Made by a program: the position numbers and the translations under genes | Notes under the pieces: model-generated | Database searches by the model: none | Told to the model about the DNA's origin: nothing | The model's input: only the letters and a program-made list of their open reading frames with translations | In this document: one piece after another, positions 6,423 through 9,442 of the stretch | How positions within the stretch are numbered: the first letter of the stretch is position 1 | How the letters are laid out: each line of letters begins with the position of its first letter | Assembly: GCA_024279135.1 (NCBI GenBank) | Contig: JAJRRU010000014.1 | Span: forward strand, 23,351-87,350 | Direction: 5' to 3' | DNA from: Alphaproteobacteria bacterium | Lineage (GTDB): Bacteria; Pseudomonadota; Alphaproteobacteria; Rhodospirillales; Casp-alpha2 | Length of the DNA stretch: 64,000 bases

Positions 6423-6593
6423 TCATCTGGTCGGCACATGAAGTGGTTCAGGCTTTTCCCGATACAGACGTTTCTTCGGTTTGATACGTAAGTTCAACTC
6501 TAACTCACAGTAGATACGGTAGACCCGTTTATGGTTCCATTTAAAGCCTTTAACATTCCGCAAATATAGAAAGCACATCATAAATCCCCAGTT
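6423..6593 (-). mobile_element. IS3-family transposase (OrfB) internal fragment
   Basis: The C-terminal 56 aa of ORF 6423..7085 (NWGFMMCFLYLRNVKGFKWNHKRVYRIYCELELNLRIKPKKRLYREKPEPLHVP) match the HTH-like region upstream of the IS3 integrase core. There is no DDE core and no IS ends. Confidence 0.55.
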
Positions 6594-7085
6594 TCGATGG
6601 GACTTCGTTAAACCGATATACAGTTTGTTCAGACGCCCAGTCGCCCGGATATCGAAAGAGCTTTCACGGACTTGCTTGACCGTGGTGATCCCGGCCAGTG
6701 GCAGGAAGAAACCAAAGTGATTGGGGAAGTCGGAATAAGTGCAAGCGACGGTTTCGCCTGAGTTCAGGCCCTCGGCTTCCAGATCGGTGCCATCGGTTGC
6801 CAGAACGAACTTCGCCTTATTGCGAGCGTTGTTGGTGGCAGGGCTGGATTTCAAGACAGCCAATGTGTCGGAGACTTCTCCCTCCGCACAAACAGCCATA
6901 TGGATATGGTTGCGCTGAAGAACACCGCCTTCAATATCCGAAGCGTTGGACGAGCCGCTTTTCAGGCGCTTGATGGTGGTGGGCTTGTTATCAAAGGCTT
7001 CTAAAAACGCATAAGGGAAGCCTTCCGGATCAAATTGTTGATCCGCCAATTCAGATATGGCTTCTTCGATCTCAACAGCGTTCAA
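6594..7085 (-). pseudogene. N-terminal fragment of an MmeI-like type IIL restriction-modification enzyme
   Basis: MNAVEIEEAISELADQQFDPEGFPYAFLEAFDNKPTTIKRLKSG..KAKFVLATDG..FFLPLAGITTVKQVRES..DIRATGRLNKLY resembles the MmeI-family N-terminal nuclease domain. The methylase and TRD parts are missing. Confidence 0.55.
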
Positions 7086-7270
7086 TTGTTCCTACTCACT
7101 TTTATCGTCATTTTCTCGTCTATCCAGGCCTCGATCTCATTTCTTTTGAAACGCCAGGAACCACCCACCTTGAAGCCAGGAATCTTACCCTCGGCAACCA
7201 GTCGATAAGCCGTCTTTTCTTTAATTTTTAGAAAAACCGAGACTTCCTTGATCGTCCAAATTTCAATCAT
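7082..7270 (-). CDS. excisionase-family helix-turn-helix DNA-binding protein
   Basis: 62 aa (WTIKEVSVFLKIKEKTAYRLVAEGKIPGFKVGGSWRFKRNEIEAWI), an HTH_17/excisionase-type fold. It has a 4-nt overlap with the MmeI-like fragment. Confidence 0.7.
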   Translation of the reverse strand: MIEIWTIKEVSVFLKIKEKTAYRLVAEGKIPGFKVGGSWRFKRNEIEAWIDEKMTIKVSRNN

Positions 7271-7339
7271 TCCAACCTATCCAAGCAGTGCTTCCGTTAA
7301 GGCCAATAGTGAAAATAAGGGAAAATCGAGAAACTAGCA

Positions 7340-8259
7340 ATGCGTGAATCAATCAAAGTGACAGTCCTTCATTTACTTTACAAATACCCGCTCAAAGAAA
7401 TGCTGAACAACCACCTTTACCTGCAACTTAATATTAATTTACATAAATGGGTTGCAACTAACGACTCTCTTCCTGTAGTGGAGACACCCCATCAATACAA
7501 CACGGAGAGTTGCGAAATGCTTAAGGCGACGCAAGCAAGAAACACTGCATGGAATTTTCTGAGAAAGAACCCCGATTACATCAGCGATTGGCATCATCCC
7601 GACACTACACCATCAATCAAAAATGACACCAATTCCCTCAACATTTATGAACAACATCAACATGATCTGTCCGCCAAGAAATGGGGATTGTTCATGTACC
7701 AAGACCCAACGGCTTCGCCTGAAAGCATAACGCCCTTCTGGTCAATCGCACCAACCCTTGATGCGGAAATCGTCCACGGTAGCCTACCACCGCTATTGCC
7801 GATGTTGCGCAAAGTTGGTGCTAAAATTACCGGACTTCTGCTGCTTAATGGTGATTTAGTCCTGAAGGTCGAGCATGGTGCGATGTCCGTTCAGGTGCGG
7901 ATCAAAGACGGGAAGAAATTTGATGAAACATCCGGCCTGACACTCCACCTGCCACTGGACCTCACGCTGCCTATCCGGCTTACACGCAGTTTGGATCTTT
8001 GGAACTTCACAACAGGTCAACAGGCTAAAAAAGTCGTCATCCAAACTTTAGTTATTATAATGAACTTCTATTCGTTCTCGATGGTGTACTTTCTGGAAAG
8101 AGCCACCGCCAGATAGCTATTGACCTGTTCGGTAAAGACGAAGTTGACGCCGAATGGTACTACGGCAGCAAAATTCGCGGTGTTGTCAGGCGGCGCATTG
8201 CTAAATCCACAAAACTGATGAACAGCGGCTACCGCGATCTTTTGATCGGCGGTGGATAG
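7340..8259 (+). CDS. DUF6499/DUF2285 (FseA-like) transcriptional regulator, in two frames joined at an A6G run (8027-8033)
   Basis: The upstream frame carries NTAWNFLRKNPDYISDWHH (DUF6499-like) and KKWGLFMYQDPTASPESITPFWS (DUF2285-like). The -1 frame from 8029 encodes YNELLFVLDGVLSGKSHRQIAIDLFGKDEVDAEWYYGSKIRGVVRRRIAKSTKLMNSGYRDLLIGGG*, a DUF2285 C-terminal HTH, ending at 8259. Confidence 0.65.
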
Positions 8260-8387
8260 CTGTGCCATCTGCTGATAAGCCCGGACATCGCCTGGGGGGC
8301 CGTTTTGTTGATACATCATTTCGGCCCTATTTTTTCAAGTTTTGCAGTGCTTCATTACCTCCTCCACCAACTACGGAGATTGAAAAC

Positions 8388-8600
8388 ATGAACGACAAAA
8401 CTGAAGCCCGATACTGGAACACAAAACATGCTGCCGACTATCTGGGCATAAGCGCGGCAACTCTGAACCGTATGCGCCTGACAGGTGATGGCCCGCGTTA
8501 CGCCAAGGCCGGAACTCGGGTAATCTATTCCCGTGACGATCTGGAAACCTGGGCGGAAGCCAACAAACGCACCTTCACCAAAGAGGTAATCAAAAAATGA
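8388..8600 (+). CDS. AlpA/excisionase-like helix-turn-helix protein
   Basis: ATG 8388 follows GGAGAT. MNDKTEARYWNTKHAADYLGISAATLNRMRLTGDGPRYAKAGTRVIYSRDDLETWA. It has an ATGA overlap with repA. Confidence 0.7.
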   Translation: MNDKTEARYWNTKHAADYLGISAATLNRMRLTGDGPRYAKAGTRVIYSRDDLETWAEANKRTFTKEVIKK

Positions 8601-9442
8601 GCTTGTTCCCTCAATCAGAGAGGCGACAGCTTGAACTGTTTTCCTGTAACCCTACCCCTGCTGGCATTCGCGACTATCAGGATTTGATGGCTTTCCCGTT
8701 CTTCTCATTGGCCAAGGGACGGCGGATCAAGCCTCTGCTCTATGATCGTGATGGCGTTATCATCAAAGTCGAAGCTGTACCGGAATATGGCATGGCGACA
8801 ATCTGGGATGCGGATATGTTGATCTGGGCAGCCAGTCAGATCATGGATGCTCGAAATCGGGGGGAGCCAACCTCACGGTTACTGCGGTTCATGCCGCACC
8901 AATTTTTGCGCTTCGCCAATCGCCCGACTGGAAAACTAGGATATGAACGATTGCGCGCCGCTTTAGATCGACTGCAATCGACCACAATCCAAACCAGCAT
9001 CCGTAGCGATGATCTGAACCTCAACCCTGTCCGCAAATCCAAACGGCTGCATCGCTTTAGTTGGATTAATGAGTGGAGCGAACTAATCGTAAATGGCGGT
9101 TACAGCCGTGGAATGGAGATCGTTCTGCCCGACTGGTTCTATCAGGGGGTCATCAACGAAAATTGGGTGCTGGCCATAGACCCGGCCTATTTCGACCTGA
9201 CAGGCGGCATAGAGCGTTGGCTCTACCGCCTTGCCCGCAAGCATGGGGGACGCAGTGAGCATGGCTGGGGATTTAGCTTCAAGGTGCTATACGAAAAAAG
9301 CGGCAGCCTAGCCCGTTTCTCAAACTTCGCGATTGACCTGCGCCGTTTAGCAAAGAACCAGAGTTTACCAGGCTACAATCTATCGCTTACTACTGACCTT
9401 AGAGGTAATGAATGCCTTAATGTCACGCGGATAGCATTTTGA
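8597..9442 (+). CDS. repA: replication initiator protein A (RepA/RPA family)
   Basis: 281 aa. MAFPFFSLAKGRRIKPLLYDRDGVIIKVEAVPEYGMATIWDADMLIWAASQI is characteristic of the alphaproteobacterial replication initiator protein A family. The iteron region lies 1.2 kb downstream. Confidence 0.8.
   Translation: MSLFPQSERRQLELFSCNPTPAGIRDYQDLMAFPFFSLAKGRRIKPLLYDRDGVIIKVEAVPEYGMATIWDADMLIWAASQIMDARNRGEPTSRLLRFMPHQFLRFANRPTGKLGYERLRAALDRLQSTTIQTSIRSDDLNLNPVRKSKRLHRFSWINEWSELIVNGGYSRGMEIVLPDWFYQGVINENWVLAIDPAYFDLTGGIERWLYRLARKHGGRSEHGWGFSFKVLYEKSGSLARFSNFAIDLRRLAKNQSLPGYNLSLTTDLRGNECLNVTRIAF

Follow-up and report, generated by a model that had tools for sequence, protein, structure and literature searches.

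Within a 64,000-nucleotide stretch of an alphaproteobacterial draft genome (Alphaproteobacteria bacterium, assembly GCA_024279135.1, contig JAJRRU010000014.1, positions 23,351 to 87,350; hereafter the window), a regulatory gene of the FseA family does not keep to one reading frame. Its DUF6499 domain, its middle domain and its DUF2285 helix-turn-helix (HTH) are spread over two frames whose joint is a run of six A. Does such a gene still supply a complete activator, and if so, by what route? The first-pass annotation had offered a programmed −1 frameshift, a slippage switch or a fresh pseudogene. By reading the same junction in relatives, we found the split conserved in 16 loci and the out-of-frame domain bearing the mark of purifying selection; the gene is therefore not a fresh pseudogene, which leaves recoding or a slippage switch. 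The explanation we favour, with a probability of about 0.7, is that the full activator is made by low-frequency slippage at the A run during expression, an arrangement that would throttle the activator.

The split FseA-like gene and its domains

In frame 0 the junction reads GCT AAA AAA GTC, with the A run at positions 8027-8032 and a G at 8033. Past the run, frame 0 adds 27 residues (VVIQTLVIIMNFYSFSMVYFLERATAR) before a TAG at 8114-8116. The −1 frame, closed by a TAA at 8026-8028, is then open from 8029 to a TAG at 8257-8259 and translates as KSRHPNFSYYNELLFVLDGVLSGKSHRQIAIDLFGKD...GYRDLLIGGG. The two-frame layout had been described with these same coordinates and translations, all of which proved correct; the placing of the junction at the A6G run (8027-8033) was likewise borne out, and the same site recurs in orthologues. 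The open reading frame (ORF) list begins the frame-0 ORF at 7340 (7340-8116), and the true start is likely the ATG at 7517, which has GGAGAG just 5′ of it and gives a protein beginning MLKATQARNTAWNFLRKNPDY. From this ATG, the frame-0 ORF (7517-8116, + strand) would encode 172 residues of real protein, comprising DUF6499 and the middle domain, followed by the 27-residue out-of-frame tail, for a default product of 199 amino acids. The −1-frame segment (8029-8259, + strand; 76 codons and the TAG at 8257-8259) holds a linker and the extended-turn HTH of DUF2285.

The candidate slip site itself, AAA AAA G (8027-8033, + strand), corresponds to Lys171-Lys172 followed by G and provides, in frame-0 phasing, a tetramer of the A_AA.A type. 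The TAA of the −1 frame (8026-8028, + strand) stands directly 5′ of the slip codons, and the same UAA is found in most orthologues. Because of this stop, a productive shift is confined to the two Lys codons. The change of frame would have to lie between 8029 and about 8055. The + strand of the window has 34 runs of at least six A, about one per 1.9 kb; at this density, and with the run at the junction placed alike in every orthologue examined, placement by chance is unlikely.

The conceptual joined protein (247 amino acids) matched PF10074 (DUF2285, now RovC_DNA-bd) with 56.3 bits, above the cut-off of 26.4, and the match (profile positions 2-106, residues 145-243) crosses the junction; the −1 piece alone scored 51.7 bits over profile positions 45-106 only. 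At the N-terminus, PF20109 (DUF6499) gave 21.3-22.7 bits, just below its cut-off of 23.8. The window gene has the DUF6499 motifs AWNFLRKNPDY and KKWGLF, and several orthologues have a precomputed PF20109 match. RovC of Yersinia (PDB 6xz5), a single chain, is colinear with both halves of the joined protein: its N-terminal part (RovC 13-83) aligned with query residues 9-78 (E = 1.2e-5), and its C-terminal part (RovC 190-251) with joined residues 181-242 (E = 9e-7). The PF10074 match across the junction and the colinearity with RovC together argue that the two frames are one polypeptide. RovC is of the same fold family and has a solved structure; it differs in being encoded by a single uninterrupted ORF, in regulating a type VI secretion system and in not lying on a conjugative element. 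The NCBIfam models gave no match to the joined protein.

We also predicted the structure of the 199-amino-acid default product from a 15-row alignment. The model is of low confidence: the mean predicted local distance difference test (pLDDT) value was 55.5, with 71-79 in the middle domain and 31-46 in the tail. Judged by its domain content, the default product is a protein without the DNA-binding domain.

Conservation of the split and selection on the run

To follow the junction through the family, we searched the joined sequence against 5.8 billion proteins, retrieved the DNA of relatives from genome, metagenome and assembly collections, and read every junction. The protein search returned 14 relatives at 43-76% identity besides the window's own product. 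Thirteen of the 14 stop at the same point, where an invariant KK is followed by a tail of 5 or 27 residues, and are 142-208 amino acids long (mostly 196-199). The exception, P0010 (the protein of locus L042), has lost the A run and reads through the junction, but a TGA at the W of WGL breaks its N-terminus. A plasmid collection searched by both DNA and protein held no relative.

At the DNA level, a −1 shift at the same A run is needed in 16 loci, window included, from at least 12 independent assemblies of 37-73% GC. The run is A6G in the window, L011, L013, L041, L046, L047 and L048, A7U in L006, L007, L009, L010, L044 and L045, A7G in L014 and L043, and CA5G in L008. A +1 shift is needed where the run is A8 (L012, L003 and L049), so that an A run marks the junction in 19 of 19 A-type loci. 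The first-pass annotation had named orthologues encoding one uninterrupted ORF as a result that would speak against it; comparison gave the opposite, the two-frame arrangement and the A run being kept in the 16 loci. Several run lengths differ by substitution (G to A), with no indel and with the phase unchanged.

The genome of the window carries another FseA-like gene, the A8 gene L003 (C13:70632-71337), with 32-38% identity; its split falls at GCA AAA AAA AUG and needs +1. The same layout is found in L049, and P0033 and P0053, available as proteins only, share its GKAKK tail. On these comparisons the A8 +1 layout is a conserved sub-type.

The A-run form is found in GC-rich relatives as well. 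L047, on a contig of 73% GC, and L048, on one of 70% GC, retain AAA AAA G, and other GC-rich relatives have a −1 split at the same position on CGG GGG ACG (L017, L018 and L031) or on C5G3 (L029). Base composition alone does not set whether the run is of A or of G, since the A-run form persists at 70-73% GC. In a maximum-likelihood tree the A-run −1 genes group together over internal path lengths of more than one change per site, and the −1 phase is kept by 11 of 12 genes in the A-run clade. The G-run split genes (L017, L018 and L031), with the same break position and direction, fall with the A-run genes in the wider clade of second-site split genes.

We then examined the substitutions on the far side of the junction. 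The C-terminal out-of-frame domain (63 codons) gave ratios of nonsynonymous to synonymous substitution rates (dN/dS) of 0.05-0.38, with most pairs at 0.07-0.25, and its dS was about 0.45-2 or saturated, the near-identical L009-L011 excepted. For the C-frame segment of the window against five orthologues, dN/dS was 0.07-0.15. The C frame has 0 stops in its 73-77 codons, and its stop codon has the same position in all loci. These substitution patterns show purifying selection on the out-of-frame domain.

The nucleotides of the run are constrained too. Both Lys codons at the site read AAA in every locus with a run of A6-A8; counted over the 15 loci tested, AAA makes up 29 of 29 such codons, the first position in L008 being CAA, against an AAA:AAG ratio of 153:60 elsewhere in the same genes; the probability of 29 AAA in 29 is about 7e-5, a value that ignores relatedness and is hence optimistic. 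The KK pair is invariant within an otherwise variable linker. From this codon usage we conclude that the nucleotide run itself is under selection.

The closest copies with an intact junction, L042/P0010, L004 and P0127, fall short of a working N-terminus. In L042, a Logan contig of 968 nucleotides and alone among the close relatives in having an uninterrupted junction without an A run, bases 46-60 read AAG TGA AAC CTC TTT, with the stop at the W of WGL. L004 (C13:86389-86685), in the same genome as L003, is a 5′-truncated duplicate of that gene with 87% nucleotide identity over 686 nucleotides and an in-frame A7. P0127 apparently lacks its first ~50 residues, as judged from the protein match only. 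The loss of the N-terminus in junction-intact copies would fit selection against the free making of a complete activator. In Mesorhizobium, overexpression of FseA inhibits growth (PMC10359603, PMC8789080). From MKAKSLWDIAHGKAKKYPPS..., the ORF of L004 would give a protein of a lone helix and DUF2285, a candidate QseM-like anti-activator derived from a truncated activator copy.

Clearly decayed relatives were also seen (L013, L015, L038, L040 and L042). L015 (G155:C3:2138419-2139096), which shares its GC-rich genome with a second copy, L029, is apparently fused; its join is a second, downstream indel, and frame-0 junk replaces the conserved ELLLALDG helix, so that L015 is probably inactive. L038 (G006:C1:3469362-3469526) is a DUF6499 fragment that past WGVLAWE continues in the −1 frame, through a one-base loss in GAT, and then runs into unrelated sequence.

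Slippage during expression and its alternatives

How could the two frames be joined? In the explanation we favour, normal decoding would give the 199-amino-acid protein of DUF6499, middle domain and junk tail, and rare slippage on AAA AAA G (8027-8033) during expression would lead into the −1 frame. By a ribosomal route, the single tRNA-Lys(UUU) would re-pair one base back (A_AA.A); by a transcriptional route, RNA polymerase would add one A to the transcript. Either route would yield the 247-amino-acid protein with the DUF2285 HTH, and the A run would act as a throttle that holds a costly activator very low. If slippage does occur during expression, we give the ribosomal and the transcriptional route roughly equal odds. 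What the sequences show is the anatomy of the split, its conservation in distant relatives, purifying selection on the out-of-frame domain and on the run, and the lack of a separate start codon; that slippage takes place on the ribosome or in RNA synthesis, how often it does so, and which operator is the target (see below) we infer.

Some features of the genome and of the junctions suit such slippage. The genome has 39 tRNAs (ARAGORN) with a single tRNA-Lys, of anticodon UUU, and no tRNA-Lys(CUU) was found in the 98%-complete draft. A sole tRNA-Lys(UUU) is a condition known in E. coli to favour slippage on Lys codons. Homopolymers (A5-A8 or G5) occupy the junction of every split locus, where needs of both +1 and −1 nucleotide occur; in the A8 class the shift needed is the opposite one, and neither a rare codon nor a stop codon lies behind the run. 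This exclusive use of homopolymers, the A8 class and the G5 runs would fit stuttering by RNA polymerase at least as well as a ribosomal event.

Both routes resemble known systems. In IS1 insA-insB′ (A_AAA_AAC) and in the IS3 family, a rare −1 shift likewise controls how active a mobile element is, at Lys codons that form part of an A run. For IS1 no stimulator has been established (PMC4066793). Without the shift, these genes too yield a shorter protein. The differences are that the heptamer phasing there lets two tRNAs re-pair, whereas the window has one AAA preceded by A (a tetramer), that the protein family is unrelated, and that members of IS3 use pseudoknots or hairpins, none of which is present here. 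On the transcriptional side, Shigella mxiE (PMC5009743) is a transcriptional activator encoded in two frames joined at a homopolymer run, and Citrobacter tssM (PMC4256274) is an interrupted secretion gene rescued by transcriptional slippage. Neither needs an mRNA structure, and both insertions and deletions are possible, which would cover the −1 loci as well as those with A8 that need +1.

A number of observations weigh against slippage during expression. A heptamer of the X_XXZ_ZZN type is not present in frame-0 phase at the junction, where the P-site tRNA would re-pair on UAA, and only the A_AA.A tetramer fits. Bare Z_ZZN tetramers in E. coli shifted at 0.15% against a background of 0.11% (PMC4066793), near enough to background that a ribosomal event here would be rare. 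The first-pass annotation had suggested looking for a downstream hairpin or pseudoknot, and none was found by alignment folding, by single-sequence folding or by per-locus folding: the consensus fold reached −0.88 kcal/mol with 3 pairs, the window had a z score of +0.48, and the 50 nucleotides 3′ of the run gave z scores between −1.7 and +1.4 in 18 of 18 loci, none beyond shuffles. A classical stimulated −1 frameshift site is thus unsupported. As to the transcriptional route, runs proven to cause transcriptional slippage are 9-11 long (PMC5009743), against 5-8 here, from which a much smaller yield would be expected. That the tract can change in the DNA itself is seen from L012 (A8), which has two A's more than the near-identical P0008/P0003 (A6). 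Finally, full-length fused homologues lie in the same clade (P0041, P0065 and P0067).

Other signals around the junction were sought as well. In L046, a hairpin that lies right behind the run (GUCGAG..CUCGAC) was rejected as a candidate, being as stable as shuffles of its GC-rich context and not conserved. Upstream GG-rich stretches, noted by eye, vary in distance and are absent in some loci. A promoter and terminator scan of 7000-8700 gave counts as chance predicts.

The changeable tract and the fused relatives bear directly on a contingency switch at the DNA level, the main alternative, which we consider possible but unlikely. Here, slipped-strand mispairing during replication would produce rare, heritable in-frame A7 alleles; only cells with such alleles would make the activator and transfer the element, and A6 and A8 would be stable OFF states. 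Such a switch would agree with the occupation of the site by homopolymer tracts only (A5-A8, G5), with the existence of both −1 and +1 OFF phases and with the difference in tract length between L012 and P0008/P0003. It would also agree with the interleaving of fused and split genes in the tree and with the KKK that one fused relative has at the junction site, and element transfer frequencies are low enough for mutation to feed. However, no in-frame allele with an intact N-terminus occurs among 15 close clusters and 19 A-run loci (a modest sample), although every transconjugant would inherit the ON allele. Phase-variable loci typically have longer tracts than the 5-7 seen here. Moreover, the −1 phase has been kept by 11 of the 12 A-run clade members over more than one change per site, and some of the length changes arose by substitution.

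A much less probable reading is that only the 199-amino-acid frame-0 product matters, or that the gene is an inactivated remnant whose C frame is no longer expressed. The default product would indeed be far more abundant, the neighbouring ORF at 6423-7085 looks like a remnant disrupted by an insertion sequence (IS), and the five relatives named above are clearly decayed. Over such divergence, however, an unexpressed frame would decay, and the C frame has instead kept dN/dS at 0.05-0.38 with saturated dS, no stops and a fixed stop position, while the A run has been kept even at 73% GC.

It is more doubtful still that the gene works as a two-protein system, in which DUF2285 would be translated from an internal start as a QseM-like protein and act in trans alongside the N-terminal product. 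DUF2285 does occur as a protein of its own, in QseM, and then binds DUF6499 (PMC10359603), and a gene caller predicted a 57-amino-acid DUF2285 ORF in L046. In the window, L006 and L009-L011, however, the first ATG, GTG or TTG of the C frame comes no earlier than codon 52-64 of 76 (in the window, no earlier than 64), which is past the recognition helix. In-frame start codons, where present, stand at non-conserved positions. With no usable start codon in its frame, the DUF2285 domain would not be made on its own. Least credible is a sequencing or assembly error that dropped one A from an A7, for although homopolymers are error-prone and the genome is a 39-contig draft, a further 15 loci, taken from independent assemblies and sequencing projects, showed the same phase, among them some whose runs differ by substitution.

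A second split site in the FseA family

For FseA of ICEMlSymR7A, the published mechanism is a ribosomal +1 shift at UUU-C, next to WGL (UGGGGG) where DUF6499 ends (PMC10359603, PMC4755241). This +1 UUU-C site is present in about 61% of 4,709 curated FseA homologues, the remainder being single ORFs (PMC10359603), and the throttling of the activator by this proven ribosomal shift has been put at 4-13% for translation and 0.8% for promoter activation (PMC4755241, PMC10359603). The first-pass annotation was right that the published shift is +1, unlike the −1 needed here, and overlooked that the site differs as well. In the window the place of the published site is taken by W56-G-L-F59 (TGG GGA TTG TTC; 7682-7693, + strand), and the stretch TGG GGA TTG TTC ATG (7682-7696) is in frame and has no UUU-C.

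With FseA (Msi172-Msi171), the window gene shares the order of DUF6499, middle domain and DUF2285 extended-turn HTH and a two-frame gene that would make the full activator rare. It probably also shares a conjugative element as its setting and an adjacent or controlled gene of the excisionase type (RdfS-like), with an inverted repeat ~60 nucleotides upstream of its start. The break in the window gene comes ~115 codons later, at a point corresponding to FseA residue about 190 of 266, where the middle domain gives way to DUF2285; it falls on an A run and its direction is −1. Unlike the default product of FseA, that of the window gene keeps the middle domain.

For canonical examples we searched 401 genomes of the class with PF20109 and took strong matches that had short open frames; L038 and L040, tried as canonical +1 examples, were rejected as decayed remnants. 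The canonical UGGGG..UUU-C +1 site was seen in 10 genomes (L050, L055-L061, L075 and L077), in each of which frame 0 ends soon past W-G-L-x-F and the +1 frame carries the middle domain and DUF2285 without interruption. The second-site split type was found in about six of the 401 genomes. In the maximum-likelihood tree the ten canonical genes form one clade (100/100) and all second-site split genes another (100/100), with some fused genes mixed in. No published description of the second split site was found in the FseA literature searched, which did not extend to the 2015 PNAS paper.

A candidate operator follows the split gene. The inverted repeat GGGCCG-N19-CGGCCC (8297-8327, + strand), a putative analogue of the FseA box, lies 61-91 nucleotides upstream of the ATG at 8388, with its proximal half (8322-8327) at 61-66 nucleotides; the proximal hexamer of the FseA box is at 62-67 nucleotides (PMC10359603). 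The half-sites are 19 nucleotides apart in the window as opposed to 15-16 in the FseA box. In 13 loci the intergenic region has GGNCG-N19-CGNCC, and the central base covaries in both halves (C/G, T/A, A/T), fully in 10 loci and partly in 2. The repeat could alternatively be an RNA or DNA hairpin. If it is an operator, the full-length protein would bind it and, once bound, turn on the excisionase-like gene, repA and transfer functions.

The gene behind the repeat is an excisionase-type, RdfS-like HTH_17 gene (8388-8600, + strand; PF12728 at 40.3 bits, TIGR01764 weak), likely the first target gene of the full-length protein. An HTH_17 gene stands 3′ of the split gene in every locus whose contig extends there (L041, L042, L043, L046 and L048). 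In L048, the C-terminal frame reads on into the HTH_17 gene, in frame and with no stop in between, which may just reflect the scarcity of stops in GC-rich DNA. Overlapping the window's HTH_17 gene by 4 nucleotides is repA (8597-9442, + strand; PF10134 at 254.8 bits), which encodes Replication initiator protein A and belongs to the element backbone.

On the other side of the split gene, an ORF on the − strand (6423-7085) joins an MmeI N-terminal domain to an IS3-type HTH_21 fragment in one frame and is preceded by a 62-amino-acid HTH_17 gene (7082-7270, − strand). The ORF, which lies immediately upstream of the FseA-like gene, looks like what is left of a restriction gene disrupted by an IS.

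We also put forward, tentatively and as an improbable extension, that the homopolymer is a direction-free slippage site for RNA polymerase, covering the −1 shifts on A5-A7, the +1 shift on A8 and the G5 runs, and that the 199-amino-acid product serves as a built-in anti-activator or decoy for the full-length protein. The default product would keep the DUF6499 surface that normally holds DUF2285. If this were true, one gene would supply both activator and anti-activator and would determine what fraction of cells act as donors, with no need of quorum sensing or a QseM partner. More generally, the differing default product raises the question of truncated regulators that act on their own full-length forms.

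The second-site genes also matter for how the family is catalogued and studied. A further set of these regulators is overlooked, or split wrongly, by annotation pipelines and domain censuses. With runs of A5-A8 and G5, shifts in both directions and a range of 37-73% GC, the split genes make up a natural series for comparing ribosomal with transcriptional slippage. FseA-type activators control whether many proteobacterial conjugative elements transfer, and the one translational throttle described for them is the +1 shift after DUF6499. A sister clade with a second, independently placed throttle, in the form of a homopolymer slip before the DNA-binding domain, would point to strong and repeated selection for keeping the activator scarce.

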